This document shows, piece by piece, positions 15,724-37,245 of a DNA stretch of 51,087 nt (positions are counted from its first letter, which is position 1; each line of letters starts with the position of its first letter). The DNA is taken from the IMG/VR virus record IMGVR_UViG_3300032260_000006, positions 1-51,087 of that record. One strand, written 5' to 3'. The notes beneath the pieces are model-generated. The model did no database searches. It had not been told where the DNA came from and saw only the letters and a program-made list of their open reading frames with translations. A program made the position numbers and the translations under genes. The DNA comes from a virus (lineage: Duplodnaviria; Caudoviricetes).

Positions 15724-17220
15724 TTAGGCAGTTAATTTACCAATATTTTTTATGATACCCAATTTTTGAGGTTGGTAAAGTATCTGTGTCAAATAGTAAA
15801 GTATAGCAAACCTATATGTTGGACTTGTAATTGCCAAGTCTAATTTTTTCATTTTATCAAGCTCCTTAAGAGCCATAATATCAGCATTCGCAGTTTGATA
15901 CATAAATGCATTTTCAGTATTAGGGATATCATAATTTCTATCTCTAGCTAAAGTAGCAGCAGCACCATCATAACCAGCAGCCAATTCAGCTACAGTTATT
16001 GAAAATACAGGATAAAGTGGAGTGTCTGCAAGAGCAGTTGTAGGATCTACTTCACTTCTATAAATCACATACCCAGTTGCTGGATAAGCATTATCAGTAA
16101 TAGCCCATTTCATATCAATAGACTCAGTAGCACCAATTGCTACAACACTTGCACTAAGAGCTGTCATTGGACCTTCTCCGTACTGATTAACAGCAGCAAC
16201 AGCTACAAAATAATCACCAGCAAAAGCAGTTCCAAATTTAGTTGAAGCAGTGTCAGATACAGCAGCCAATGGTGTTGCACCATCGGGTGTGATTGCAGCT
16301 GGACTTTTAGCTGTCTGAGCACCAGAAGTGGCACCAGCAGTAAGTCTTTCAACTGATCTTCTACCAAAAATAACAGGTCTTGGGGTTAAATTACCAAATT
16401 GTGTTACAAATTCAGTAACCTTTTGTCCAAATTTACCTGCTTGAACCTCAGCACCAGAAACAATACGTCTAGTATCATATTTTTGATCTACATAGTCTGT
16501 AAATACAGATGGTGGAGCAAAAATATCAGTAACTAAACCATAACCTCTGTTAACAATGTTTGAAATCAATTCATTATTGTGAGAGTCTAAAAGAACACTT
16601 CCTCTTACATCTAATGTAAATGGAGAGTTAAAATAATCAGCATTAGTTCCACCTATTAATTTTTGGTGTAATCTATAAACACCATCAAATTCTAATTCAT
16701 CAACATTTGATTTGCCAAAATGCATTTCGTTTTCAACAGATTGTAATAGTAAGGTCATTTTATTTTGAACCTCTTGAGCATAAACATCTACTTGGTTGTT
16801 AGTCTGCATGATAACATCAGTAACTTGACCAACGATACCTTTATACTTAACAAATTCTGATAAACGTCTGTATTGAGAATCAACTGATTCTGGAAGTTCA
16901 CCTTCTACAGTATTATATTTTCCTGCTGCACCATAACTAACTAATTGATTATATTCTTCATTAGTTGAAGTTGCTGCTTTTTTCTTAATAGCATTGTAAA
17001 ATGTGAAAGTGCTGTTACTATAAGTAAGATTCTTTAAAGTTGCCTCTAAACTTTCATACTTAAGAGCTGCACCGTTTGTTATTTGGCCATCAAGACTTGT
17101 ACCTGATGCCTGTCCTGCATTAATTGCCTTGATCAATTCATCAACATTAGCTGAACTGAATACTGAACCAGCATTAGCTCCTTGATTTTGATTAAATTGA
17201 TTTGTTTCGTTATATAACAT
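15724..17220 (-). CDS. Major capsid protein
   Basis: 498 aa. 'GAALKYESLEATLKNLTY', 'EEYNQLVSYG', 'EGELPE' and 'LEFDGV' resemble SPO1/Twort-type capsid proteins. It is followed by a terminator. Confidence 0.9.
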   Translation of the reverse strand: MLYNETNQFNQNQGANAGSVFSSANVDELIKAINAGQASGTSLDGQITNGAALKYESLEATLKNLTYSNSTFTFYNAIKKKAATSTNEEYNQLVSYGAAGKYNTVEGELPESVDSQYRRLSEFVKYKGIVGQVTDVIMQTNNQVDVYAQEVQNKMTLLLQSVENEMHFGKSNVDELEFDGVYRLHQKLIGGTNADYFNSPFTLDVRGSVLLDSHNNELISNIVNRGYGLVTDIFAPPSVFTDYVDQKYDTRRIVSGAEVQAGKFGQKVTEFVTQFGNLTPRPVIFGRRSVERLTAGATSGAQTAKSPAAITPDGATPLAAVSDTASTKFGTAFAGDYFVAVAAVNQYGEGPMTALSASVVAIGATESIDMKWAITDNAYPATGYVIYRSEVDPTTALADTPLYPVFSITVAELAAGYDGAAATLARDRNYDIPNTENAFMYQTANADIMALKELDKMKKLDLAITSPTYRFAILYYLTQILYQPQKLGIIKNIGKLTA

Positions 17221-17249: not shown

Positions 17250-17984
17250 TTATGCTACTACTTTGATTGAAAGTTTTTCAGCTAATGCTTTTTCCAATCT
17301 AGGAGAAACTTTGCTAGAACATTCTAAACTTGCAATATCGTCTGTTAGACTTTTTGCAAATTCTTCATCGCCTTCCATGTATTTGGTTAGTCTAGATGAA
17401 ATTTCACCTTTGTGTTGAGAAATTGATAGAACATTCATTCCATCATCTGTAGTAGACTTCTCAAATCTTTGAACTTGACCAGCACCACTCATACCATTAA
17501 TGGATTTTAATCCTGGAGAATAGTTTGCTAATGCTTTCAAGATTTCTTCACTTCCTTCAAATGATTTTTTCAAATCATCATTGTCCTTTAAAAGCTTCTC
17601 ATTGTCGTCCTTGATTGATACCATAGTATCGGTAAGTGATTTAATTAAATTAGTCAAACCTTCCATCCTTTCATCAGATTTATCATTTGATTCTTTAATT
17701 TGATTTTGACTTGCAGTTAATGACTTATTAATTTCATCAAATTTTTCATCATAATCAAAAACACCATTGTTTGATTTTTCAAGGTCTTGTAATTGATTCA
17801 ACCTGTCAAGTTCAATTTGCTTTTCAGCAATTTGCTCATCAACGGATTTTTCAATTTTATCTGTAGTTTCTTCTTCTGGAGTAATATTTAAAGATTTCAT
17901 GATTTCTTCATCACTTACCTCTAATTCTTGAAGAGATTTTACAAGTTCAGCTTGGTCAGGAGATAAACCTTTTATGTTTAACAT
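17250..17984 (-). CDS. Putative scaffold protein
   Basis: Acidic coiled-coil protein between the protease and capsid genes, with more than 10 K-S/K-A motifs. Confidence 0.7.
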   Translation of the reverse strand: MLNIKGLSPDQAELVKSLQELEVSDEEIMKSLNITPEEETTDKIEKSVDEQIAEKQIELDRLNQLQDLEKSNNGVFDYDEKFDEINKSLTASQNQIKESNDKSDERMEGLTNLIKSLTDTMVSIKDDNEKLLKDNDDLKKSFEGSEEILKALANYSPGLKSINGMSGAGQVQRFEKSTTDDGMNVLSISQHKGEISSRLTKYMEGDEEFAKSLTDDIASLECSSKVSPRLEKALAEKLSIKVVA

Positions 17985-18079: not shown

Positions 18080-20212
18080 TTAAAATAATTTATGTTGAAG
18101 TACTTCTGTTGTTTCTTTTTTAACATACTCTTTTGACATTTCCACTATCAAATCTTTTGCTTCATCAAGTACATCTTCATGTCCATAAAGACTTCCATAC
18201 TTTTTCTCAAATTTGTTATCTGAAAGACCTTCTTTTTCTTTTGTTTTTTCTTCATACTGAAGTCTTTCATTAATAAAATCTATCTTTTCAGATAAAGTGT
18301 CTTTATCTTGAAAGTCAAGTTGGAGATTATTCACTCCTCTAATTTTTCTACTTTCTTTTGGTTCGTCATGAAGCCAAATACTGTTATCTAATTCCTCTAA
18401 AAATTTATCTAATTTCTCTTTTGTTTTAGAAGGAAGTTTTTTAATGTCTATCTTTTTAGCAACATCTGACATGTTTTTCAAAACATCAGGTTTCGTTCCA
18501 TAAGTTTTAGAATCATAAATACCTACACTATCTAATTTTTTAGCTGCATTATTTAAATCCTTCATGTCGTTAACCTTCTTGGTAACTTCTTTAGGAATTT
18601 CTTTCTTTTCTACTTTCTCCTTTTTTTTACCACTACCCTTGACTTCATCAAACATTTTTTTAGCAGAAGACTCCATACTTAAATTTTCATTTGGGTTATA
18701 TTTATCAGAAAATTGTTGAGAAACATCTGGAGGAACATTTTTTACAGCACGCACCTTAGTGAAAAACTCACTCATATCTTTAGAATTGGCGGCTATATCT
18801 CTAAATTCATTTAATTTATCGTCTTTATGATATGATTCTTTCTTACCACTTTCCTTTTTGTCACTCACACCCTCTTTTTTAGATGAACTCTCATTTTTTA
18901 AATCATCCTCAATCCTTTCTTTAGCTGCTTTTAATGCTTTCTCTTTGCTTCCTCCATATAAATCAATAGCTATACTAGAAATTTTAGTTTTACCATCAAT
19001 CCCTCTATGTTCTACACGCACCCATTTAGCATTTTTATTATCTTTATATGGCATAGTGCTTTCAGTTATTCTAAAACTACCACCTTCTTTAGTGGTTTCA
19101 ACTGTTCTTTTCCCATTGTTTTCCATTTTAGTACTTACAACTTCTCTGTCTTTATCGCTCTTGCCAGCTTCCTTTTTACCCTCACCACTAAACTTACCAC
19201 CTGCACCTGCTATAACTTTGCCATCACCACCAATAAGTACCTTAGCTCCATTCATTGTTACCCAATTACTGCCAGCATGTTTTGATTGAAGATTCTTAGC
19301 TTTTGCTTTTTCCAATATATCATAACTCACCTTACCTTCAATAAAGGCTTTTCTAATTGTATTATAGTTTTTATCAGATATAGACATTTTATAATTTTCA
19401 GTTGCTTTGTCGAATAAACTTTTAGAAATTGCACCTGTCATGGTTGCATTAGCTAAATTAATTATTGCATCTTTTTTCTTTTTTTTGCCTTCTAAACTTT
19501 CTTTAATTAGAGGTTTTGCTGTTGTTGTGTCAATAGCTTTTTCAACTTTGAGATTTAAGTCTTTGTCGATTGTATATCTCATCCCAGTTTTAGGGTTGGT
19601 TATGTCAACTAAATATACAATTCCACCATTGGTTGATTGTATAGCTTTTTCAACATCATAAGAATTTATTGGTTTTGAATAATTTCCCTTAACGATGTCA
19701 GCGTATGAGTTAGAATTTTTTGGTGAAAAAGTGGCTGCAAGCCCCGTTATCAGGGCTTTTGTGATACGTTTTTGATTTTGTGGATGACGTTCAAGAGCCT
19801 TTCCTTCTATACTGAAACCTAGTTTTTTCTTGCTTCCAGAATTATGTAGCATTATCATTGTATCGTAAAGATTTCTGGCAACCTCACTATCTTTATATAA
19901 TTTAGCCTTTACAAAGAACTTATTATCAACCACTTTAGCTTCCACAGGTTCTCCAATAAGGAATCGTGGGTCGTCTTTTAATCTGTGATCATAATTTATG
20001 TTTCCCAGTTTAAGGAACCGATCAAGCACAAAACCTGCTGGTTCTAAAATTTCTGAATCAGTGTCAGTGCTAGAGTCCGAAGCAATTCCAGAAATTAACA
20101 TTTTTTCATACCTCTTATCACCAACTTTTTTAGAAGCTTTTTCTAAATCATTGCCGTCAACTTCAACAAAAAAGTTAAAGTCTGGTGTTATATCTTTACT
20201 TAAATAGTTCAT
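18080..20212 (-). CDS. Prohead protease with long C-terminal extension
   Basis: The N-terminal ~190 aa have 'ISGIASDSSTDTDSE', 'INYDH', 'IGEP' and 'LGFSIEG', typical of HK97-family/Herelleviridae proteases. About 500 further aa follow. Confidence 0.85.
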   Translation of the reverse strand: MNYLSKDITPDFNFFVEVDGNDLEKASKKVGDKRYEKMLISGIASDSSTDTDSEILEPAGFVLDRFLKLGNINYDHRLKDDPRFLIGEPVEAKVVDNKFFVKAKLYKDSEVARNLYDTMIMLHNSGSKKKLGFSIEGKALERHPQNQKRITKALITGLAATFSPKNSNSYADIVKGNYSKPINSYDVEKAIQSTNGGIVYLVDITNPKTGMRYTIDKDLNLKVEKAIDTTTAKPLIKESLEGKKKKKDAIINLANATMTGAISKSLFDKATENYKMSISDKNYNTIRKAFIEGKVSYDILEKAKAKNLQSKHAGSNWVTMNGAKVLIGGDGKVIAGAGGKFSGEGKKEAGKSDKDREVVSTKMENNGKRTVETTKEGGSFRITESTMPYKDNKNAKWVRVEHRGIDGKTKISSIAIDLYGGSKEKALKAAKERIEDDLKNESSSKKEGVSDKKESGKKESYHKDDKLNEFRDIAANSKDMSEFFTKVRAVKNVPPDVSQQFSDKYNPNENLSMESSAKKMFDEVKGSGKKKEKVEKKEIPKEVTKKVNDMKDLNNAAKKLDSVGIYDSKTYGTKPDVLKNMSDVAKKIDIKKLPSKTKEKLDKFLEELDNSIWLHDEPKESRKIRGVNNLQLDFQDKDTLSEKIDFINERLQYEEKTKEKEGLSDNKFEKKYGSLYGHEDVLDEAKDLIVEMSKEYVKKETTEVLQHKLF

Positions 20213-21089
20213 TATTTTTTGATTTACAGTTATCGAAATGCCACTGATTCATTGCATGAATACCACCTTCTTTTTTACAGTGAGGGCAGGTAGTTAATTT
20301 TTGTTTTCTACTTTTTTCAATTTCTTCTACTTCTTTTTTAGTATATTTAGGATTTTTAACACAATATTCAAAGTGATAAACTTTCATCATACTAATATTA
20401 CCAACCTTGTCGCAATGAGAGCAAGTAACTTTTTCTCTATTTTTAGCAGACTCAGACATTAATTCTAAAGTTTCTTCTGAACGCTTTCCTCCTTTACGAC
20501 TTTCACTCATTTTTTTTCTAGTCTCGTCTGAAATTTTTCTGTTTGAATTAGCTTTACTAATTCTTTCTCTAACTTCTTTAGAGTGAGTTTTGCCATAAAA
20601 ATAATTATTTTTACCCTTATTGGCTTCACTTATTTTTCTTTTTGTATTTTCTGAATGAATTAAGCCTGACGTTCCACCTCCACCATCTACTAAATTATAT
20701 CCATTATTTATAGAATCAAGATATTTTATATAAGCGATTTCTGCTTTATCTAAATTCAATTGATCCTCACAAAAACAACAAAACCTAACTTTAAAATTTT
20801 CTTTGCCATATTTCTTGATAGTTTTTTTAATATAAGTACCACTACCTAAATAATTATCATCCATGTTATCAGTAGTGTGTTGACCAACATACATTTTATC
20901 AGTTATTAAATTTCTAGTACCATAAACAATTCTATATTTACCATCTGATGCTTTTGTGAAATTACATATAGTTTTAAATTTAGGTTGAAATGAGAAAGAT
21001 CCTGACAAATTTTGTTCAAAACTAACATTCCACCTATCTCCAACAATAGGATAATTCTTTATATCTATTTTTAATGCTTCAGCAATCAT
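20196..21089 (-). CDS. Free-standing GIY-YIG (Seg-like) homing endonuclease with NUMOD3 repeats
   Basis: 'IVYGTRNLITDKMYVGQH...YLGSG...KKYGKENF', 'GYNL..GG', HSENTKRKISE-type repeats and two CxHC modules. Confidence 0.9.
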   Translation of the reverse strand: MIAEALKIDIKNYPIVGDRWNVSFEQNLSGSFSFQPKFKTICNFTKASDGKYRIVYGTRNLITDKMYVGQHTTDNMDDNYLGSGTYIKKTIKKYGKENFKVRFCCFCEDQLNLDKAEIAYIKYLDSINNGYNLVDGGGGTSGLIHSENTKRKISEANKGKNNYFYGKTHSKEVRERISKANSNRKISDETRKKMSESRKGGKRSEETLELMSESAKNREKVTCSHCDKVGNISMMKVYHFEYCVKNPKYTKKEVEEIEKSRKQKLTTCPHCKKEGGIHAMNQWHFDNCKSKNNELFK

Positions 21090-21092
21090 CCC

Positions 21093-21101
21093 ACAAATAT
21101 A
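21093..21101 (-). promoter_or_regulatory. Bacteroidota-type -7 element upstream of the homing endonuclease
   Basis: TATATTTG on the minus strand just before the ATG, but with no correctly spaced TTTG. Confidence 0.4.
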
Positions 21102-21116
21102 CTAATAATTCACCAA

Positions 21117-21248
21117 TTATTTTTTATCTTCCTTAGTTTTATTCTCTTTAGGAAATTTCTTTAAAAATTCCTCTCTTATGTTTTGAGTATCATTATCAAA
21201 TTCTTCAATAGGAAGCTCTTCTGCTTGATTCTTATTTTGCTTTGCCAT
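21117..21248 (-). CDS. Small 43-aa charged protein overlapping the end of the polyvalent gene
   Basis: MAKQNKNQAEELPIEEFDNDTQNIREEFLKKFPKENKTKEDKK*. It fills the gap and is below the ORF-track cutoff. Confidence 0.5.
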   Translation of the reverse strand: MAKQNKNQAEELPIEEFDNDTQNIREEFLKKFPKENKTKEDKK

Positions 21249-24200
21249 TTTTCTTTTCCTCCATATATTTATCTAACATAAATGATGATTTTGAATCTTT
21301 GCTTAAATCGAACTCTCCATCAAACTCAAATCCATTTTCTTTCCAAAATTCTCTACCTTCTGAAAATGACATTAGCTCTGAAACTGATTCAACTGATTTA
21401 ATTTTTTCATTTTTACTTTCAGATATCAAATTAGAAAACTCAGTCACATTATTTTTACCCATATCATAACCTAATCTTGCCCATGTATAATAACCATTAT
21501 ATTCTTCTCCTGGTTCATCTGATTTAGCTGCACGTGTTTTAATAGTTTTATACCCTTTTTCTCTGTATTTATCAACTTGACTGTTAAAAATATTAGTCCC
21601 TAAACCTTTGGCTTGGCTACTCTTTTTTAAAGAAAAAGAATTATTAGTAACAATTTTATTTTTAGGATCATAAAAACGAGACATATATTCTACATTTTCA
21701 GATTCCATTTTAACACTAATTCCTTGCCTAGTTGCACTAACCACTTGTTTTATTTCTAATCTAGATATTTTACCAATATTCTCTTTCCCTCCTAATATAT
21801 CGTATGTATTTTTTATAGTCTCATAATCAGAAATGCCTCCAACGGCTTTAGATAATGTAGCAATACTTATGTTGCTTCCTTCAAGAAAACCATTTATTAC
21901 ATCAGTGTCTTCTTTAGTAATAAAATCAACACCCCTTTCTTTTAATATTATTTCAGCAGCTTGCCTTACTTCTTCATTTGAAGCCATTAAATAACTATTC
22001 TCTATTTGCCCAGTAGATATTTTACCAAACATTTCAACAAATTGATTTTCCTCTTTAGTTTCTGGCTCTTTTTTATCTTTCTCAGTAGATTCCTTCTCTT
22101 CAGTTTTTTCACCCTCACCAGTTTCTTCTTGCACTTTCTCCTCTTTCTCCCTTCTATCTAGCTCTTTATGAGCTGCTGCACGAATTTCTGGATCTTTTGA
22201 TTCCTTACTAGCTATTTCTAATGATGATCCACTTGCTGTTTTAGCTTGTTCGTCAATAGATTGCTTCTCTCCTTTAGGTTCTTCTTTTTTGGCTGTTTTA
22301 CCATCTTTAGACTCTTCTTGTTGACCTTTGCTACCATATTTTTGACCAACTCTCTTTAATCGTCTATTAGTGGCATTGTCGCCATATGTTCCTGTTCTAC
22401 CTTTTTCAAAATCATCTTCTTCAAAAGCACCAAAGTAATCATAAATACCTAGAGATTTTAATATTTCTTTATTTTCTCTTAGAAATTGTTCAATAAGAGG
22501 TTTGATTTCCTTTTCATAAACCCCTTTATTAACATGATTTCCTCTTGTGGAATAAGTATCTTCATCGCCATATTTACTTACTTCTCCATAAGTTTCAGTT
22601 GCCACATACTGTTCTAATGCTCTAGCAAAACACTCACATGTTCTATTTTGATAATCAGACGATTGTGTTTCGTTCATGTTTTTTCTAAACGTATCTGCTA
22701 TTTTGTTAGCTGTACTACCTTCTTTATCACTTGCATAGCTATTCCCTGAATTTTTACCAATAGAATAATCCATAAAATGAGCATACTCATGACCAAAAGT
22801 AAATTGAAATTGATTATCCCCATACTGAGAACTAACACCTATCGCATTATAATATGGATGAAATAATCCAATAGCTTTTCTTGCATGCATTAATACGCCA
22901 CCCGAATGAGAAATTTTAAGTCCAAAATCTTTATTCATTTGAATATTATTCCCAAATAAATTAGATGTTACATCTAAAGCTTTTTGAATCTGATTAATTT
23001 CATCCTTATTTATCTCATCTCCATTTTGCCTTTTAACCTTAACACCATAATCATCCAATAAATCATTTTTAGCATTAGAATCACCATAAGATGTTTCAGC
23101 ACCTTTAGTATAAGCAGTTTCTAAATATTCTTGCTGTAAATCTAAATCAATGGATTTTTGTTTTTTTGCTCCAGACATTTCTCTAGAAATTTCCCATGTT
23201 TCACTCCTACTTGGAGTCGCACCTTCAGCATTAAGATTCATTCCTTGAATCATATGCATTTGATCATAAGTCATTTTGTTTTTAGTAAGAATTTTAAGCC
23301 TTTTCATTCTTGGCTTACCTTCTTCATAATGTTTTAAAGTTTGCTTTAAACGTTCCTCCATAAAATCACGTCTAGAAGGAGTTATTTTATTCAATTCTTC
23401 TTTTGTTAAAGCTAATTTCGTTTCTGCTTTTCTTCGTTCCCAACTATCTATTTGATCTTGTTTAAATTGTTCTTTTGCCTTTATTTGATAATAATTTTGT
23501 GTTGCTACATATGTGTCAAGAGACATTATGGCAAAATTACCATAACCATTTACGCCAGCAACAGAATATGAATAAGCTCCTCTACCACCCATAAAACCAT
23601 CTAGTGCAACTAAATATTTATCTTCACCTATCTTAGAAGCAGACAGGGTATAACTATTTCTACTAAATCTATCTATATCTATATTTGGTATAAAGTATGG
23701 TTTAGGGGACGTTAATATATTTTTCGCTTTAGGAATGCTTACATCAAGAGCTGGAACATCTGTATAGTCTTTTGTTTTTAAAACTTTAGAATCTTTCGTT
23801 TGATTCTTAGGAGAATTTAAAACAATATCTTCTCCATTTTTAGGTTTATAATCCACCTTACTTGTTGGCTGTTTAAATCCTTCTTTAGTAGCCTCCTCAT
23901 TCTCTTTTTTAATTTCTGGATTAACTTCTTCTGGTGATTTATTTTTCTTTAATGCTTCAGAAATTTTACGCTTTGTTTCTTCAGACATTGCTTCACGTTT
24001 CTTTTTTTGTTGTGATTTTAAATCTGCATATAAAGCCACTGCTTTTGGGTCTACTGGATCGCCATTTTCAATAGCTTTCTTGACAGCATTATAATGAGCA
24101 AACACCAATTTACTTATTAATTGCTTTTTTGTTAAATTTTCAGTTTGTTCTTTTTTAGTGTATTTTTTGCTTGTACCACCAGTAGAAACTTTTTTTTGTC

Positions 24201-26418
24201 CTTCTTTTTTATCTTTTTTCTTAGTAAAAGTATCTACCACACTCTGAATTTCTGCTTCAGAGATTCCATGCATTCCTAAATACTCTTGTAGGGAATAGTT
24301 TTGAATATTTTCTATTGGCTTGATGCCGTAAATCTTCTTTTCTGTATTTACCCTATTTGATTCATTAGCATCATTATTTATTTTTCTTAATTCTTTATCA
24401 TTTTTCTCTGGCTTTGTTTCGATAATCTTTTCATCAATACCTTTTAATTCAACACCATCTTTAGTTTTTATATCATACTTAGTTCCATCACTATCTGAAG
24501 CACCTTTTTCTATTTTACCATCAATTCCTTTTACGTTAACCTCAGTACCCTTATCTAATTCATTTTTTTGATTTTGAATAGCTTCAGCCTTTTCATCATT
24601 ACCCTTATTCTTTACATCAGAGTATATGATTCCTAAAACCTGTTCTTTGACCGAATTAGGGAACATCCAAGCTTTAAGTTTACCAAGATACCTACCAACT
24701 CCAGTAGTTTTTTTAATCTCTCTCATTAACTCTAAATTAGCATAAGTGTCTCCACCTATAGAAAATGCCTTATCTGAGTATTGAGTTATGTTTAATCCTT
24801 TAGTGCTAACAGAAATTTCTTCACCTACAGGTGTTTCGATTTCCTTCTTTTTATCACTATCAGTTTCTTCGTAAATATATTTGTAATTTCCTTTAGATCC
24901 TGTTCTTTTAATATATTTAGTAGCCTTTTCAAATATTTCTTCAGAAATTTTACCTTCATCAAAAGCTTTTTGAATAACATTAAAAGATTCAGTGGCATCT
25001 TTTGCTTTTTCAATATAATCTGGATCAATTAAAAAATCATCTTCAATCGACTTATCAATCTTATCTTTTTTTTTAAGCTGCTCTTTATAATTTACTAATT
25101 CTTCTTTTTGAGTTTCAAGTTCTTTAGCAACTTTATCATCCATTTCAGCATGTGGAGTCAATACTTTTATTAATCGTTCATGCTCTACAATCATTTCTTT
25201 TAACTGATCTGTAGTGTATTCTGATTTATTTTGTTTTAATTCTGAAAATGGTTTACGTTTTTGACTATAACTACCATCTTTTTTATATAACCATTTTTTA
25301 AATTCTTCTTCACTAACTTCTGTAATTCCACTATATTTAATTGTATGGTTAGGGTTGTAATTAGCTTTATAATTACTAAAAGCATCTTCTTTTGTTTCAA
25401 ACCCCATCATTACTTTATGTTCATCAAATCCACCTATGTTGTTTGATTGATCAATTACATAAATATTGCCTTCGTTTGGCTTATCTGAAAGGAATACATC
25501 TATATGGTCGCCATCTTTACCTAATGACCTATTAAAGTAACCATAGTCATTATTCATAGTTACACTCCAATCTTTTCCTTGTGGATTTTTTCCAGAACGA
25601 ATAGAATTCTTTTTATTTTCAATAGAGATTTGTAATCCTCTTACTTTTCTTTTTTCTTTTTTATAATTACCTGCTTTCTTTTGTGCTTCTGTTGGTTCAA
25701 TTGCTTTACTAATACCAGATTCACTCATAGCAATTGCTATTGCTTGATCTTTATCTACAACCTTTTCGCCTGAACCTGATTTAAGATCACCTGCCTTAAA
25801 TTCACTCATTACTTTAGAAACTTTTTTTTCTTGAGCTGTTTTTACTGCTTTTTCAAATAAATCTTGTGGTAATCTACCTTCTTTGTAAGCTTTTTGAATT
25901 GCATCTATCTGAATATCTCTTTCATTGCCTTCAGATTCTGTTTTAAATTTAATAAATGACTTTGAATATAACTTATCGTCTACATTACCCTTTAAAAATT
26001 CATCAGTAATGTGATTAAATGCCTTCTCTAAAGACTCTTTATGTTTGTATCGGGTGATTGCTTCAATAATCGCTGGTTTAGCCATTAAATTGCTTAATTT
26101 ACTATTTAATTTGTTGTTTGATTTACGTAATTCACCAATTTTACCAAAATAATCACTATTAATGTTAGATAATTTATCTTTTGTTGATTCTAATATCACT
26201 AAATGATCAAAACCTTTTTGTTCTTCCTTATAAATATCACAATAAATAGAAGATACTTTAACAGATTTTTCTAAATTAGAAATAATAGGAAGAAAATCTT
26301 CACCAAATTCTATAGCCTTATCTTTATTTTCTTGTATAGACTTTTCTAAACCCAATACAAGTTCAATATTTTCTTCAATATTATTGAAGCCAAGAAATTT
26401 TCTTATCTTATCTAACAT
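21232..26418 (-). CDS. Large polyvalent (internal head) protein: DUF6496-like, inorganic-pyrophosphatase-like, LPD1-like zincin and GNAT-like domains
   Basis: 'KVSKVMSEFKAGDLKSGSG...QAIAIAMSE'; 'PTEAQKKAGNYKK...ISIEN...DGDHIDVF...FDEHKVMMGF'; 'GHEYAHFMDY...ECFARALEQYV'; 'QAKGLGT...NGYYTWARLGY'. Confidence 0.8.
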   Translation of the reverse strand: MLDKIRKFLGFNNIEENIELVLGLEKSIQENKDKAIEFGEDFLPIISNLEKSVKVSSIYCDIYKEEQKGFDHLVILESTKDKLSNINSDYFGKIGELRKSNNKLNSKLSNLMAKPAIIEAITRYKHKESLEKAFNHITDEFLKGNVDDKLYSKSFIKFKTESEGNERDIQIDAIQKAYKEGRLPQDLFEKAVKTAQEKKVSKVMSEFKAGDLKSGSGEKVVDKDQAIAIAMSESGISKAIEPTEAQKKAGNYKKEKRKVRGLQISIENKKNSIRSGKNPQGKDWSVTMNNDYGYFNRSLGKDGDHIDVFLSDKPNEGNIYVIDQSNNIGGFDEHKVMMGFETKEDAFSNYKANYNPNHTIKYSGITEVSEEEFKKWLYKKDGSYSQKRKPFSELKQNKSEYTTDQLKEMIVEHERLIKVLTPHAEMDDKVAKELETQKEELVNYKEQLKKKDKIDKSIEDDFLIDPDYIEKAKDATESFNVIQKAFDEGKISEEIFEKATKYIKRTGSKGNYKYIYEETDSDKKKEIETPVGEEISVSTKGLNITQYSDKAFSIGGDTYANLELMREIKKTTGVGRYLGKLKAWMFPNSVKEQVLGIIYSDVKNKGNDEKAEAIQNQKNELDKGTEVNVKGIDGKIEKGASDSDGTKYDIKTKDGVELKGIDEKIIETKPEKNDKELRKINNDANESNRVNTEKKIYGIKPIENIQNYSLQEYLGMHGISEAEIQSVVDTFTKKKDKKEGQKKVSTGGTSKKYTKKEQTENLTKKQLISKLVFAHYNAVKKAIENGDPVDPKAVALYADLKSQQKKKREAMSEETKRKISEALKKNKSPEEVNPEIKKENEEATKEGFKQPTSKVDYKPKNGEDIVLNSPKNQTKDSKVLKTKDYTDVPALDVSIPKAKNILTSPKPYFIPNIDIDRFSRNSYTLSASKIGEDKYLVALDGFMGGRGAYSYSVAGVNGYGNFAIMSLDTYVATQNYYQIKAKEQFKQDQIDSWERRKAETKLALTKEELNKITPSRRDFMEERLKQTLKHYEEGKPRMKRLKILTKNKMTYDQMHMIQGMNLNAEGATPSRSETWEISREMSGAKKQKSIDLDLQQEYLETAYTKGAETSYGDSNAKNDLLDDYGVKVKRQNGDEINKDEINQIQKALDVTSNLFGNNIQMNKDFGLKISHSGGVLMHARKAIGLFHPYYNAIGVSSQYGDNQFQFTFGHEYAHFMDYSIGKNSGNSYASDKEGSTANKIADTFRKNMNETQSSDYQNRTCECFARALEQYVATETYGEVSKYGDEDTYSTRGNHVNKGVYEKEIKPLIEQFLRENKEILKSLGIYDYFGAFEEDDFEKGRTGTYGDNATNRRLKRVGQKYGSKGQQEESKDGKTAKKEEPKGEKQSIDEQAKTASGSSLEIASKESKDPEIRAAAHKELDRREKEEKVQEETGEGEKTEEKESTEKDKKEPETKEENQFVEMFGKISTGQIENSYLMASNEEVRQAAEIILKERGVDFITKEDTDVINGFLEGSNISIATLSKAVGGISDYETIKNTYDILGGKENIGKISRLEIKQVVSATRQGISVKMESENVEYMSRFYDPKNKIVTNNSFSLKKSSQAKGLGTNIFNSQVDKYREKGYKTIKTRAAKSDEPGEEYNGYYTWARLGYDMGKNNVTEFSNLISESKNEKIKSVESVSELMSFSEGREFWKENGFEFDGEFDLSKDSKSSFMLDKYMEEKKNGKAK

Positions 26419-26427
26419 AATTTATTT

Positions 26428-26931
26428 TTAGAATCCTAATAGAGTAATTTGATTAGTTGTTAAGGTATAATTCTTATTATCTTGAATATTTCTACGTAAA
26501 CTATCAATCTTAATCTTATCTATACAAACACGAATATATTTTTCAGCATGTTCGTTATAACTCCTCATTTTAACCTTTTCTTCTTCAGTAGGCGCAAGCA
26601 TTGCTGGTTCTTGAATGTCGTTATCAGTCTTAATATATTTTTTACCATTTCTGATTAAATCATAACTAAATTTCTTAGGAATATAATCAAGTAAATGTTT
26701 ATATTCTTTATCATAATAGCTATCAGCATCAGGATAAAAAGACATACCACTAGTCCCTTCATTCATTTTCTTTAAACATTCTGCTTTTTGAGTACTAAGA
26801 TTGGTAGAAATATTACCTAAATTTACCTTAATATCAGAACCCTTTTTAGAGTGTTTATTGAGATCATTATCTTTACTGTGTGTGTCAAATAAAGAATAAA
26901 ATCCCTTAATTAATTCTTCTTTTTTATTCAT
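26428..26931 (-). CDS. Hypothetical protein
   Basis: 167-aa ORF in the head operon. Confidence 0.6.
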   Translation of the reverse strand: MNKKEELIKGFYSLFDTHSKDNDLNKHSKKGSDIKVNLGNISTNLSTQKAECLKKMNEGTSGMSFYPDADSYYDKEYKHLLDYIPKKFSYDLIRNGKKYIKTDNDIQEPAMLAPTEEEKVKMRSYNEHAEKYIRVCIDKIKIDSLRRNIQDNKNYTLTTNQITLLGF

Positions 26932-31955: not shown

Positions 31956-33920
31956 TTAAACTTCATAAACTTTGTCCCCTACTGTTATTTTAATTCCTTT
32001 CTTTTCTTTATTCTTATCCCTTTTAGGTGGTGTGAACATTCCTAATTCATCATCCCAAATATATCCTGCTGGAACTCTGTGAACCATACACCTACAATTA
32101 TGGACAATTACCCCCCTAGCAACAAAACTTTCATCTTCTTCAACCTCTATATCATACAGTTTTGTGTGTTTAGTTGTGAAATTTTTCTTTATAAATAAAA
32201 TATTGGTATATTCAAACCTATAATCTCCTTCATGGTTTTGTGTAATTCTTTCAATATCACCATGTAATATTCCTAATTTTGGCAATTCAGAATATCTTAA
32301 AACATGCCACCCATTAGATTTTAACAATTCATCTCTTTTATTGTCTTCATCTTTCCTGCTATCATGCCAATAGGCTCCATCAAATTCTATATCAATCTTA
32401 TATTTTGGCAAAGCAATATCCAAACTCTTGTTAAATATTTCATACTCTAATTCAACTTCTGAATAAAGAGATTTAACCATTTCATATAATTTTTTCTGCG
32501 GCTTAGAAACCCTCGTTCCAGCAGCTGCCTTCATAGCCTTTAATGCTTGCCCATTTAACATTCTTTCTTTAGTTCCTTCAATCATTTCCTTAGATTGAAG
32601 ATTTTTTAATGTATTTTCATGAACTCCATCTTCCCAATTCTGTTTAACTTTTTTACTTATTTTATCGCTAAATTCATCAAAACCTTCTTTCTTTCGTTTA
32701 TCCCATAATTTATTAGCATTAATAGCTCGGTATTTATTAGAACATTTATCACTGCAACAATTTTTACTATCACCCATATAAGATGGCAAATAATTATCAC
32801 AAATAACACATTTTTTTAATAATTTTTTAAGTTTATCTGTAGACTTTAAATCTTTTGTCATTACCCACCCCCTTTGTGTCAATAGTTTATGATCTCCTGT
32901 AAATGTCATTTTAACCACATCATCGGGCTCTTTAGTGTTATAATGATTATAATAAATAGTATAAGTCAACTTATGGCTTTCTTCTGTGTGTGGGCATGGA
33001 TAATCTTTTAAAGTTGATAAAACCTTTCTAAATCTCCCTTTATGAGTTAAAACTTGATCACCAATTTCAATTTCTTTAATCATCTTCCAGCCATTATCTG
33101 TTAAAACAGATGTTTTGCCTTCCGTAATCGAAAAAGGGTGGACTGGTTCTAATGTAGGAAGCCAATCTTTCTGTTTTTTCCCAACATTAGTTCCGTTTGC
33201 CCTTAATGTATCCAATGTGAATACTTTTGGCTTGCTTCCAATACCCCCAGTTGTATAAAATCTAATACAGAACCTACATGCCTGTGGATAAACCTCTTTA
33301 TATACTTGAGCTTCTTTACCATCTTGCTTTTCTATTTCAGCAGCACGACCTTCCTCATATACGGCAGCCATTTCAGTTGCTGCTATACGGCCTAAATCTC
33401 TACTCCAATCGCCTGTTTTATTTCCAATTTCTGAAATTACACTATTAATTGTATCACGCTCTACAATCGCTCTTTCTATACTTCCTTTTGTTGTTGCTTC
33501 AAAAAAGTCTCTATATGATTGACCTTCATTTACAATTATGTTTGTTGTATTTTGATTTACTTTTTGACCTAAATTTTTTAAATGTGAATAAGTTCTTTGT
33601 TTGGCAAAATCTAGAGAAGCTTTCTCTCTTGTATTTAATGGAACATACTGTCCACGCCTTAAATATTTAAGAAAATCATTGTATTCTAACTTTGCTGTAT
33701 TGTTATTGCCTAATGCAGCCGCTAATCTACCGAAATAGAAGTTTTGTTCGTATGGTGTGAATGGTGTCTTTAAGTCCTTTAAGTCTATCCCAAATTGCTT
33801 TAATAGCTTTATATCGTCCTTTGTTAGTATATCAGTTCCTACATTTTGACCGATAAACAAAGTATGATTAAAATTTATAATCTTTAATATTTCTTGTATT
33901 TTCTGTTGGTTGAAAATCAC
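31956..33920 (-). CDS. MuF/SPP1 gp7-like head morphogenesis protein containing an intein
   Basis: 'RIAATEM', 'ACRFC', and an HP(F)-CRC motif that is restored when the intein is removed. It lies downstream of the portal. Confidence 0.85.
   Translation of the reverse strand: MIFNQQKIQEILKIINFNHTLFIGQNVGTDILTKDDIKLLKQFGIDLKDLKTPFTPYEQNFYFGRLAAALGNNNTAKLEYNDFLKYLRRGQYVPLNTREKASLDFAKQRTYSHLKNLGQKVNQNTTNIIVNEGQSYRDFFEATTKGSIERAIVERDTINSVISEIGNKTGDWSRDLGRIAATEMAAVYEEGRAAEIEKQDGKEAQVYKEVYPQACRFCIRFYTTGGIGSKPKVFTLDTLRANGTNVGKKQKDWLPTLEPVHPFSITEGKTSVLTDNGWKMIKEIEIGDQVLTHKGRFRKVLSTLKDYPCPHTEESHKLTYTIYYNHYNTKEPDDVVKMTFTGDHKLLTQRGWVMTKDLKSTDKLKKLLKKCVICDNYLPSYMGDSKNCCSDKCSNKYRAINANKLWDKRKKEGFDEFSDKISKKVKQNWEDGVHENTLKNLQSKEMIEGTKERMLNGQALKAMKAAAGTRVSKPQKKLYEMVKSLYSEVELEYEIFNKSLDIALPKYKIDIEFDGAYWHDSRKDEDNKRDELLKSNGWHVLRYSELPKLGILHGDIERITQNHEGDYRFEYTNILFIKKNFTTKHTKLYDIEVEEDESFVARGVIVHNCRCMVHRVPAGYIWDDELGMFTPPKRDKNKEKKGIKITVGDKVYEV
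32097..33131 (-). mobile_element. Intein (345 aa) with Vsr/DUF559-like endonuclease
   Basis: Block A 'SITEGKTSVLTDNGWKMIKEIEIGDQVLTH', block B 'TGDHKLLT', and blocks F/G 'LYDIEVEEDESFVARGVIVHN|C'. Internally 'DIEFDGAYWH...RDELLKSNGWHVLR'. Confidence 0.9.
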
Positions 33921-34825: not shown

Positions 34826-36493
34826 TTAGGCTATTTGAGACTCTTTTGTGAACTTATTAAGGTAATTGTTTAAGGATTTACTAAATGGATCTGTATTGCT
34901 TTTATTTTCAAATTCCTCATATGGATTGTCGAATGATTCCCCAGCATCTTCATCTACAGCTGCGTTTGCTTCTTCAGTGCCTGACTGTTCCATTTGCTTA
35001 TATGACACCATTATTTGATTAAGTAAAATATCTTTACTCATATCAAGCTCTTTATCACTATATTTTAAGAAGAAATCTTGAACTGACATACCACCATTTG
35101 TAAGAATCTTAACATCTCTTTCTAAAGATGCTTCTTCGTCATCTGGTTCTAATCCTGTGAATTTAAATTCATATTTTCCACCTGACATTGGTCCAACTAA
35201 ATACTTAGTGAATTTCCTTTGCCAAAACTTTAAAAATGGCTCTAATCCTTTTTCCTTACTATGAGCCAATCTTTCTTTTTGACCATCTTGACCAAATGTG
35301 CTATTTCCACCACCTTCAACATTAAATCCTACCTCACTTGGATCAATTCTAAATACTGTACAACTTAATACTGTTAAAAATTCACTCCATTTATGAAATT
35401 CCATGTCTCGATTTGAGAGCTGCATATTAAGCCATTCCATGTCTCCACCACTGATAGCAGCAAGTTTATGTGAATTGGAAGACCCCGAAAGTGTATTTCT
35501 CCATGCTTGTTTAAAATTTTCAAGTTGGGTGGAATCAACATTGCCTTTGAAGTTTAAAATACCTTTTGGATTACTGCCTTGTTGGAAGAAATTACCATTA
35601 TATTGGTTACTGTTCAACATCCATGTAATGACTTGAATCAATGTTTCGTTTTCGCTTAATCCATATCCATTCAACCTAACATTAGTTGTTGAATTTCTTA
35701 CTCCAAAACAAAGTTCCCAAGGATAATATTCTCTATAAATACTATTACCAAATACTTGTACGTATCTAGGCAAATATCCATTTATCATATACGCTTCAAG
35801 TTTGGCTCTTTCTTCTTCATTTTTAACATTGTGTTCTGCTAAATAGAAAGTTGTTCCATCATACACATCAAAGCCTGTTGGTCTACCTATTCTATCTACA
35901 GCAACTTCAAATACTCCTTGATCAATTGCCCAACTATCTTCATATAATTTTCTTGTAAAGCTTTCCCAGCCATCAAAATCCCAAATATTAGTATTACCGC
36001 CACGCTCTAAGAATAATACAATAGCTTCTATTTCTTTTTTCTCAGCATTAGTTAATTCTTTTGTTTCTGTATCAAATAGTCCTGGTTTCTTTTGAATTAT
36101 CCATCCTGGACTTTGAGAATTAATTGAAAAACTATTGAAATTACCAGCTTGTTCTATTCTAGTGTTAATTATAGCCTTTATTTGAGGTGTATTAGACATA
36201 TTCCTTAACAAATCATTATTAAGTCCTTGTGGCTTGTATTTATACCCTTCACCAGTATAATAGCTCTGCATAGGGTTGGTAGTAAACGACCTTAAATCAT
36301 TTTTCTTCCTTTCCTCTATACCTTTTATATGAGTTTTAGCTTCAACATAAGCTTGTGGATTATTAGAATTTAGAGCCTTTTCGATATAAAAAAGCTCTAA
36401 TTGTTCTAATTCTGTCTTTTGTCTTAACAGCTCTTGAAGATTTTTTGGTTTTGAATTATTCTGGCTTCTGTTAAATATTTTCTTCTTTGCCAT
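34826..36493 (-). CDS. Portal protein
   Basis: 'GYGLSENE', 'YNGNFFQQGSNPKGIL', 'RDMEFHKW', 'VFRIDPSEVGF' and 'SKEKGLEPFL' are HK97/Twort-type portal motifs. Confidence 0.9.
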   Translation of the reverse strand: MAKKKIFNRSQNNSKPKNLQELLRQKTELEQLELFYIEKALNSNNPQAYVEAKTHIKGIEERKKNDLRSFTTNPMQSYYTGEGYKYKPQGLNNDLLRNMSNTPQIKAIINTRIEQAGNFNSFSINSQSPGWIIQKKPGLFDTETKELTNAEKKEIEAIVLFLERGGNTNIWDFDGWESFTRKLYEDSWAIDQGVFEVAVDRIGRPTGFDVYDGTTFYLAEHNVKNEEERAKLEAYMINGYLPRYVQVFGNSIYREYYPWELCFGVRNSTTNVRLNGYGLSENETLIQVITWMLNSNQYNGNFFQQGSNPKGILNFKGNVDSTQLENFKQAWRNTLSGSSNSHKLAAISGGDMEWLNMQLSNRDMEFHKWSEFLTVLSCTVFRIDPSEVGFNVEGGGNSTFGQDGQKERLAHSKEKGLEPFLKFWQRKFTKYLVGPMSGGKYEFKFTGLEPDDEEASLERDVKILTNGGMSVQDFFLKYSDKELDMSKDILLNQIMVSYKQMEQSGTEEANAAVDEDAGESFDNPYEEFENKSNTDPFSKSLNNYLNKFTKESQIA

Positions 36494-36540: not shown

Positions 36541-37245
36541 TTATTTTTTACCCTTTTCTGTTTCTTCTTCTTTTTTGTCCTCATCGTCATCACCAATTTC
36601 AATCTCAATATTAGCTTTCTTCATATAATCATCAGACATATTCTTATAAGCTTTATTGAGGCATTTCTTCATCATGTCTTTGTCGCCTTTTGGATACTTC
36701 TCCACCATGCCTTTATACATGTCTTTTTTCTCCATACCACCTTTTGAAACATATTCAGATGCAGATTTCATCATGTCTTCATCGTAATCTTCATCTTTTT
36801 CTTCAGTTTCTTCCTTATCTGCTTTCTTAACAGCCTTCTTACCTTTTTCAAAAGTAATACCAACTCTACCTAACTCTTGATTAAGTGGAGTATCTAAATA
36901 AATACCTTTTTCTATTTTTTCACCAGTTTCAGACTTTTCAATAATGTCAAGCCATTTAACTTGCTTAGGTTGTACATAGATATCACTTTTAACGATTCTA
37001 TTCTCAATCATTTCATTAATAGTGTATTTGGTTAGATTTTTAAATTCAGCTGTTCCTGCCTTAATTAATTCAATTTCTTCTTCATTTAACTCATCCACTT
37101 CGCCTTTTTTAACTAATGAATTAAGATTAGCCATTAGCATTCCAATTTGCTGAGGACTAAAGATATCAAAATCTTTTACTTCATTTAACTTATCAAAATC
37201 ACTTTTTGTAATTTCGTTCTTGTTTGTAATCATTGTTGTGTACAT
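36541..37245 (-). CDS. Putative internal head protein rich in K-[S/A/G] motifs
   Basis: 234 aa and highly charged. It is the first gene after a late promoter and contains ITKS, IVKS, IEKS, IEKG, FEKG, MMKS, MYKG and LNKA. Confidence 0.55.
   Translation of the reverse strand: MYTTMITNKNEITKSDFDKLNEVKDFDIFSPQQIGMLMANLNSLVKKGEVDELNEEEIELIKAGTAEFKNLTKYTINEMIENRIVKSDIYVQPKQVKWLDIIEKSETGEKIEKGIYLDTPLNQELGRVGITFEKGKKAVKKADKEETEEKDEDYDEDMMKSASEYVSKGGMEKKDMYKGMVEKYPKGDKDMMKKCLNKAYKNMSDDYMKKANIEIEIGDDDEDKKEEETEKGKK

Follow-up and report, generated by a model that had tools for sequence, protein, structure and literature searches.

A helical hairpin and a lysine site in the head polyproteins of a Bacteroidota-type myovirus: a candidate label for loading cargo into the prohead

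How does a tailed phage bring a long multidomain protein into its prohead, and how is that protein then divided into separate effectors? The question is raised by the virus record IMGVR_UViG_3300032260_000006, the whole of which (51,087 nucleotides, here called the window) was analysed and which contains a contractile-tail module and a head module. Two of its head-gene products, a carrier protein of 1728 amino acids (aa) and the C-terminal extension of a 710-aa prohead protease, contain between them five copies of an 18-residue element, and it had been predicted that this element is a portable tag that both loads cargo into the prohead and is cut by the protease. Our analysis indicates that there are two separate signals, a helical hairpin and a cut site, rather than a single tag. 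The site, hydrophobic-x-K-[S/A/G], is very probably the recognition site of the head protease, whereas the hairpin is, on balance, best read as an optional prohead-loading label with neighbouring sites that free the modules. Both the loading and the cutting are inferred from sequence comparison.

All five 18-mers translate exactly as originally quoted, in frame on the minus strand, and start at residues 137, 174 and 482 of the 1728-aa reading frame (hairpins 1 to 3; Table 1) and at residues 253 and 286 of the 710-aa frame (hairpins 4 and 5). As had been noted, Gly 8, a hydrophobic residue at position 10 and a terminal hydrophobic-x-K-[A/S] are kept in 5/5 copies on direct reading; in 99 dereplicated copies, Gly 8 occurs in 88 and the hydrophobic residue at position 10 in nearly all. 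In a leave-one-out ranking against the 14,751 18-mers of the 66 minus-strand reading frames of the window, each of the three strong copies ranks first, the copy at 19403-19456 second and the copy at 25957-26010 thirteenth. A profile built from homologs only gives the strong copies 27.9-32.2 bits, compared with a maximum of 16.1 in 200 shuffles, gives the 19403 copy 9.9 bits and leaves the 25957 copy outside the top 15. These two weak copies are not significant alone and are backed by orthologs that have the motif at what aligns as the equivalent place.

The site is found 11 times in the separate scaffold (1.5 expected), 13 times in a 234-aa protein encoded upstream of the portal gene (1.4 expected) and 22 times in the carrier (11.2 expected), and none of the other 44 of the 47 reading frames of the window has an excess at p<0.01. 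It is also conserved at residues 20-33 of the capsid protein in the 30 distinct capsid starts listed, with one further capsid row that does not match the pattern. Before module starts, which were grouped into seven leader types and dereplicated, the site stands at a leader-specific distance in 122/123 cases; the distance windows for this count were chosen after a first look, and the background within 12 residues is 18%. A first count (site 72/85, tag 33/85) included six false pattern matches and searched too narrow a window in the case of the WxT module, and is superseded. Before InPase, the site is present at five of six starts in the clade and in just 5/55 unrelated polyvalent proteins, and nearly every site is followed by a basic leader. 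Thus, the scaffold excess, the capsid start and the module starts agree with the original prediction that the terminal hydrophobic-x-K-[A/S] behaves as a head-protease site. The proposal that the tag itself marks the modules is not sustained, because it is the site that marks the joints (122/123, compared with 57/123 for the hairpin) and the hairpin is optional. The further statement that a module begins directly behind each strong copy fails for the WVTMNG motif, which begins 14 residues past the tag, those 14 residues being a conserved part of the WVTMNG module.

The enzyme that would cut these sites is a prohead protease of the HK97/T4 gp21/assemblin fold, by family match, by fold and by its His and Ser residues. 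His76 and Ser134, which are invariant in 11 aligned homologs, are probably catalytic, and the top fold matches of the protease model are gp21 and assemblins (T4 gp21 comes first, with an E of 2.4e-3 that misses the 1e-3 bar of the tool). Most unfused proteases in the collected loci are 257-294 aa long and stop soon after the position of hairpin 4; in relatives, the hairpin often ends a protease that has no cargo, and often has no site behind it. Among dereplicated unfused protease tails, 17/29 are tag-like at p<=0.012, and none of the three long ones is. Of 54 longer homologs, which were assigned to hand-made and partly circular classes, at least 12 bits is reached in 10/12 protease-cargo fusions versus 2/42 protease-scaffold fusions. 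In a quick tree of 86 protease domains with a weak backbone, two unfused tagged lineages lie among the fused proteases. The site is found just behind 74/81 internal hairpins, behind 9/18 terminal ones (Fisher p=1.6e-4, with kinship uncorrected) and behind 6/28 unrelated look-alikes. The reading as a loading label is favoured because the hairpin is found on proteases that are not fused to the scaffold, has been duplicated in front of cargo, and has acquired a site behind it where there is something to free.

In the mechanism proposed here, the carrier and the protease would bind to the scaffold core, or to the inner shell, through the hairpin, and the protease would cut after Lys in the scaffold, the capsid N-terminus, the carrier and its own tail. 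Hairpins that lie between two sites would be excised as 14-residue peptides, and each module would then begin with a short basic leader and leave the head together with the DNA.

The distribution of the motif agrees with the expectation that it is placed where modules meet and in genes of the head cluster; across the clade, nearly all of the genes that bear it are located between the portal and capsid genes. When 80 viral loci, taken with 10 kb on each side, were scanned with the profile, 89 matches of at least 13 bits were obtained, near-copies counted, versus 1.1 expected; among the gene maps viewed, the genes matched are those of proteases (in the tail), of carriers encoded upstream of the protease and of one scaffold (at the N-terminus). 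Because the 80 loci span just 10 kb per side, 15 whole records were also searched, and these yielded 30 matches at E<=1, many of the strong ones being training sequences. Of the 21 matches at E<1e-5, 19 are in the head cluster and two in small genes among the neck genes, one of which consists of hairpin, leader and cargo; the nine weaker matches comprise six to head-cluster genes, one to a gene that encodes a homolog of the carrier middle module on its own, and two to a ParB protein and a helicase. Of the metagenome-locus matches that are unlike the training copies of the profile, 19/20 are in protease, carrier or scaffold (6/20 come from the first seed set). A search of 1.84 billion proteins gave 44 profile matches, which we classified ourselves as 26 clade proteins, the window's own included, and 18 unrelated ones. 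A single-protein locus search gave no match. The motif is portable, as predicted, in that the cargo behind the hairpin is swapped among relatives, and minimal genes occur in which a short N-terminus is followed by the hairpin, a site, a leader and the cargo (P0197, where the cargo is an ADP-ribosyltransferase, P0207, P0208 and G004:74714).

Other origins for the tag within the head module were considered and rejected. As a copy of the scaffold C-terminal helix it fails, since scaffold C-termini score at most ~2 bits where they match best. The scaffold N-terminal helix pair fits in register with Gly shifted by one, but most of the signal comes from the site columns, so that it is kept as an analogy only. 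The capsid N-terminus agrees with the tag at positions 1-8 only, and 0/31 tags lie above background without the site columns. In the gut-type scaffolds L026, L028, L043 and L057, the N-terminal helix pair is followed immediately by the first half of the tag.

The specificity of the hairpin lies in its placing and its ends, not in its shape. An AlphaFold model of the tag has two amphipathic helices (2-12 and 18-26) around a Gly turn, with a confidence score (pLDDT) of 89, and the hairpin within the whole-protease model likewise has two helices around a Gly turn, at low confidence. The resemblance to SHOCT (PF09851), which had been pointed out originally, extends to this point, because SHOCT is likewise short, with two helices and a conserved Gly in the turn between them (PMC3581485, in part). 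It fails at the gathering cut-off (27 bits), at the conserved Glu and at the C-terminal position. Of 31 tags, one has a match at E 0.0045, proteins with tandem tags score 21-22 bits, and the window's own five copies have no match at E<=10. In the register given by SHOCT-positive matches, the Glu aligns with tag position 14, where Glu occurs in at most 5/99 tags and is outside the six commonest residues; position 13 is an acid in 77/99. SHOCT lies within 50 residues of the C-terminus in ~89% of proteins, the tag in 21/99, being mostly internal and bearing protease-site ends. These comparisons bear on the explanation that the hairpin is a self-association module, which would hold the protease and the carriers together as an internal mass, so that packaging is indirect and the sites are still protease cuts. 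The amphipathic model, the tandem or multiple copies per chain in P0181, P0188, P0191, P0205 and P0218, and the weak SHOCT matches, which reach E ~2e-4 in two tandem-copy proteins, are in favour of this explanation. However, an oligomerisation role for SHOCT, offered as an alternative in the original prediction, was not backed by its describers' first experiments according to the available text (PMC3581485), the tag lacks the conserved Glu and is mostly not terminal, and the rarity of the hairpin in scaffold-fused proteases would be left unexplained. We therefore consider self-association unlikely.

A second explanation is that the hairpin serves the cut rather than the loading, by docking on the protease or by presenting its flanking sites, and that loading is performed by the N-terminal helical region of the carrier or by the basic leaders. 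Consistent with this, tag positions 1-8 follow the pattern of the capsid maturation site, hydrophobic-x-K-A-hydrophobic-x-x-G, K-[ASG] occupies positions 3-4 of 57/81 and positions 17-18 of 46/81 internal tags, the carrier N-terminus is conserved across the clade, and a basic leader stands behind nearly every site. It is nevertheless a rather improbable explanation, because most sites have no hairpin, terminal hairpins, which have nothing to release, are often not followed by a site, and the minimal tag genes do without the long carrier N-terminus.

The history of the carrier bears on a third explanation. By its domains and position, the 1728-aa carrier is a phage-type polyvalent protein, since InPase, DUF6496 and a weak LPD1 match occur in one chain, to which orthologs add ART-PolyVal, and since its gene is located between the portal and MuF-like genes and the protease gene. 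It consists, in order, of an N-terminal helical region, hairpins 1 and 2, DUF6496, InPase, a helical module, hairpin 3, a KYIKR-led module, an HExxH (LPD1-like) region, a GxYxD-led module and a GNAT-like C-terminus, the last being a lead only. The usual order in the clade is helical N-terminus, hairpin, NUDIX, hairpin and cargo. Because the N-terminus aligns with those of NUDIX carriers through hairpin 1 (hhalign 97.5%, E 8e-12), the adjacent hairpin pair reflects the loss of NUDIX. Hairpin 3 is an insertion that five aligned orthologs do not have. The order of a degenerate copy followed by a strong one, which had been noted for both proteins, does exist; it is explained by the lost NUDIX in the carrier and by a cassette added to the ancestral tail in the protease. 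DUF6496 is encoded in unrelated phages by a stand-alone gene adjoining the portal or head genes, so that cutting would set free a product similar to one that exists naturally, and a hairpin stands in front of the GxYxDxxxNRRLxRVG leader at 16/32 homologous starts.

Internal hairpins could then be hitch-hikers, spread by recombination in DNA that encodes hairpin and site, with no function of their own outside the protease tail. The three strong copies have 36-40 of 54 bases in common, hairpin 3 is present in the window and missing in five orthologs, and cargo fusions are scattered over the protease tree (10 changes for 11 rows). The conservation of Gly 8 and of the hydrophobic residue at position 10, the persistence of hairpins 1 and 2 around NUDIX in distant lineages and the full hairpin retained by stand-alone genes make this explanation very unlikely. 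Cleavage of the carrier by its own HExxH metallopeptidase, with the lysine motifs being incidental, is the least credible explanation: the carrier has HEYAH at residue 1210 with a weak LPD1 match (E 0.007), and such domains have been proposed to self-cleave polyvalent proteins (Iyer et al., 2017; PMC5512222, in part), but the scaffold is full of this same site, which also marks the capsid protein, and modules start at sites even though a peptidase family is found at E<=0.001 in 0/22 locus carriers scanned.

Several observations weigh against the hairpin as a loading label and against the lysine site as its counterpart. Loading alone does not explain the internal repeats, since a polyprotein needs one label. 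The hairpin is missing before 66/123 module starts, 12/29 unfused protease tails have none by the p<=0.012 test, and the site-rich 234-aa protein has none either. The likeness to the scaffold N-terminus is sensitive to the site, as the tags above the 99th background percentile decrease from 15/31 to 2/31 without the site columns. The shape is generic: the 18/44 unrelated matches include SHOCT-like repeats, tape measures and GLUG, and the shape also matches GH3 glucosidases, a ParB protein, a helicase and 10 places in 113 unrelated polyvalent proteins. No hairpin of at least 11 bits was found in the DAC16 or MA9V-3 genomes, though sites and leaders are present there. As for the site, the protease gene has 10 versus 5.9 expected (p=0.07, not significant), and about half of the 22 carrier sites are not kept in five orthologs; those that are not kept are probably due to chance. 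Finally, the scissile bond is assumed. Capsid proteins of A511/Twort-type phages are cut at a K-S site, and Lys-[Ser/Ala] is taken as the scissile bond because of this processing. The available parts of PMC12282133 and PMC10054541 are silent on K-S cleavage of these capsids, and the phage K peptide (PMC5258805, in part) is tryptic and thus cannot tell such cleavage.

In cultured DAC16, a short element, [LI]NLS[SG]F, precedes site and leader in three genes, as if it were a lineage-specific filling of the hairpin slot, and it is a candidate alternative loading element. DAC16 (L184, L081; MT074137.1: 24382, 26055, 30193, 108450) has four genes with a GxYxD..NR..RVG leader near the N-terminus, and the three that open with [LI]NLS[SG]F are located well away from the head cluster.

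Table 1. Features of the head region of the window, with positions as window coordinates
Feature	Position	Strand	Remark
Capsid protein gene	15724-17220	-	
Capsid LIKA, residues 29-32	17125-17136	-	Predicted site of maturation; hydrophobic-x-K-A-hydrophobic-x-A-G is conserved
Separate scaffold gene, 244 aa	17250-17984	-	Site-rich
Scaffold N-terminal site-bracketed helix pair	17892-17945	-	In register with tag
Prohead protease with C-terminal extension, 710 aa	18080-20212	-	Protease aa ~4-175, phrog_1028 E 1e-35
408-aa cargo fused to protease	18083-19306	-	No further site
WVTMNGAKVL motif leading protease cargo	19187-19264	-	
Hairpin 5, strong	19304-19357	-	Opens added tag-site-cargo cassette
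Hairpin 4, weak	19403-19456	-	Ancestral C-terminal hairpin of protease; cargo-less relatives end just past it
Protease segment aa 223-243	19484-19546	-	Resembles site and N-arm of capsid protein; by eye, unscored
Polyvalent carrier, 1728 aa	21232-26418	-	22 hydrophobic-x-K-[SAG] sites
Site FEKG (22399-22410) and GxYxDxxxNRRLxRVG leader	22327-22410	-	No hairpin here
Basic KYIKR..GNYKYIY leader	24871-24918	-	Would be new N-terminus after cut
Hairpin 3, strong	24922-24975	-	Five aligned orthologs without hairpin here keep only the site before the module
InPase module, aa 244-377	25288-25689	-	E 1e-46; site ISKA (25702-25713) in front, no hairpin
DUF6496 module, aa 193-234	25717-25842	-	Family match
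Hairpin 2, strong	25846-25899	-	Site motif at both ends; DUF6496 behind
Hairpin 1, weak	25957-26010	-	Ancestral copy; precedes NUDIX in relatives
Carrier N-terminal region, aa 1-132	26023-26418	-	Homology to N-terminus of NUDIX carriers in the clade extends through hairpin 1
MuF-like head gene with intein	31956-33920		Label from position and resemblance
Portal	34826-36493		Head module
234-aa protein upstream of portal	36541-37245	-	Site-rich; GxYxD-type leader, no hairpin

The head genes are arranged in the order portal, MuF-like gene, carrier, NUMOD3 endonuclease, prohead protease, scaffold and capsid protein (Table 1). The named records nearest by capsid protein are those of the Bacteroides phages DAC16-23/SJC03 and the Chryseobacterium phage MA9V-3 (~35% identity), followed by Herelleviridae-type phages. 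The motif-bearing clade consists of Bacteroidota-type myoviruses with a Herelleviridae-like head, and the host of the window's virus is, from these relationships, presumably a member of the Bacteroidota. The 244-aa product is probably the scaffold, by position and by likeness to the C-terminal part of fused homologs, and the 234-aa protein is probably a degradable core protein comparable to T4 gp67/gp68. The NUMOD3 homing endonuclease gene (20196-21089) is inserted between carrier and protease, overlaps the protease start and is missing in the close relatives L001 and L103-L105. The intein of the MuF-like gene carries a DUF559/very-short-patch-type endonuclease; among relatives there are uninterrupted forms of 300-317 aa as well as forms of 655 aa. 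A 167-aa gene directly upstream of the carrier (26428-26931) is conserved in several relatives and has a weak phrog_26378 match.

Within the protease, the segment that resembles the capsid protein is clearest in the homolog P0010; it may serve for autocleavage or as an additional element for docking. The 408-aa cargo and the tag region gave no family in Pfam, PHROGs and Atlas searches, and tblastn of the WVTM leader against annotated phages gave no match. In the carrier, residues 779-796 (~24031-24084) form a second hairpin-like stretch, in the middle module; a stand-alone homolog of that module (G004:2907-5462) is encoded far from the head cluster, and its hairpin-like stretch scores 16.6 bits as a tag. 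Carriers of the gut-type relatives L025, L028, L044, L046, L050, L051 and L071 have NUDIX and, behind a hairpin, DUF5856 or ferritin-like cargo, which suggests a packaged iron-binding module.

The protease-tail origin of the putative label, its internal and repeated use and its separation from the cut site are new. A description of the motif was not found in the open-licence literature, a scope outside which subscription journals and supplements lie, and the domain lists of Iyer et al. might mention short motifs. Tentatively, and with rather more doubt than belief, it may be proposed that the clade has co-opted the C-terminal hairpin of its protease as a portable and repeatable address label that works inside a polyprotein. 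With the lysine sites and the basic leaders, it would constitute a three-part code for loading, cutting and ejection, with which Bacteroidota myoviruses, a widespread group that includes gut phages, would shuffle injected effectors like cassettes. The choice of cargo for phage heads has been worked out for T4 and little else, and the splitting of polyvalent proteins is an open proposal; both are testable here, because each predicted cut specifies exactly which N-terminus to expect, and because the hairpin is a 54-base part that can be fused or deleted. If the proposal is correct, a protease tail has been turned into a general packaging label, and the rule of site plus leader would find injected effectors (ADP-ribosyltransferases, kinases, NUDIX, GNAT, InPase and ferritin-like proteins) by sequence in a large group of uncultured phages.

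Among the closest known systems is that of HK97, in which the C-terminal region of the maturation protease gp4 reportedly directs encapsidation, as Duda, Oh and Hendrix are said to have described in 2013. In both cases, a protease that is made as a polypeptide of its own probably owes its loading to its tail; we know of no natural copying of the gp4 tail onto cargo genes. The polyvalent proteins of Iyer et al. (2017; PMC5512222, in part) resemble the carrier in being multidomain late-gene products with InPase, GNAT, ART-PolyVal, Kinase-PolyVal and zincin-like domains that are predicted to be packaged and injected. They differ in that autoproteolysis by a metallopeptidase domain is proposed, in that no loading tag or head-protease sites at joints are described in the available text, and in the scarcity of the site in unrelated InPase proteins noted above. 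Head proteins of SPN3US/PhiKZ are cut by gp245 at A-X-E; much as is proposed for the window, there are long multi-site propeptides, the protease removes its own C-terminal propeptide, and a targeting role has been suggested for propeptides (PMC10052503, in part). There, in contrast, the cuts take terminal propeptides and most head proteins are uncut, and the available text of the same source reports no shared hairpin or module-wise cutting.

Capsid targeting sequences of T4 are cleavable propeptides with affinity for the core, and those of IPI-IPIII are N-terminal propeptides of 10-19 residues on single small proteins, cut after Glu by gp21 (PMC9026906, in part). The putative label of the window differs in being a predicted helix-turn-helix that is mostly internal, repeated in polyproteins, often bracketed by sites and also present at the end of the protease. 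Only 9/99 dereplicated tags, and 0/5 in the window, start within the first 80 residues, and the recurring putative site is hydrophobic-x-K-[SAG] rather than L/I-X-E. By analogy, the hairpin would do the work of a T4 capsid targeting sequence but does not belong to that class, since it departs from it in position and in the P1 residue. What the two would have in common is a short label on varied cargo and a prohead protease with a three-residue motif (L/I-X-E in T4, hydrophobic-x-K here) that also shreds the scaffold, and gp21 is itself the best fold match of the window's protease model.

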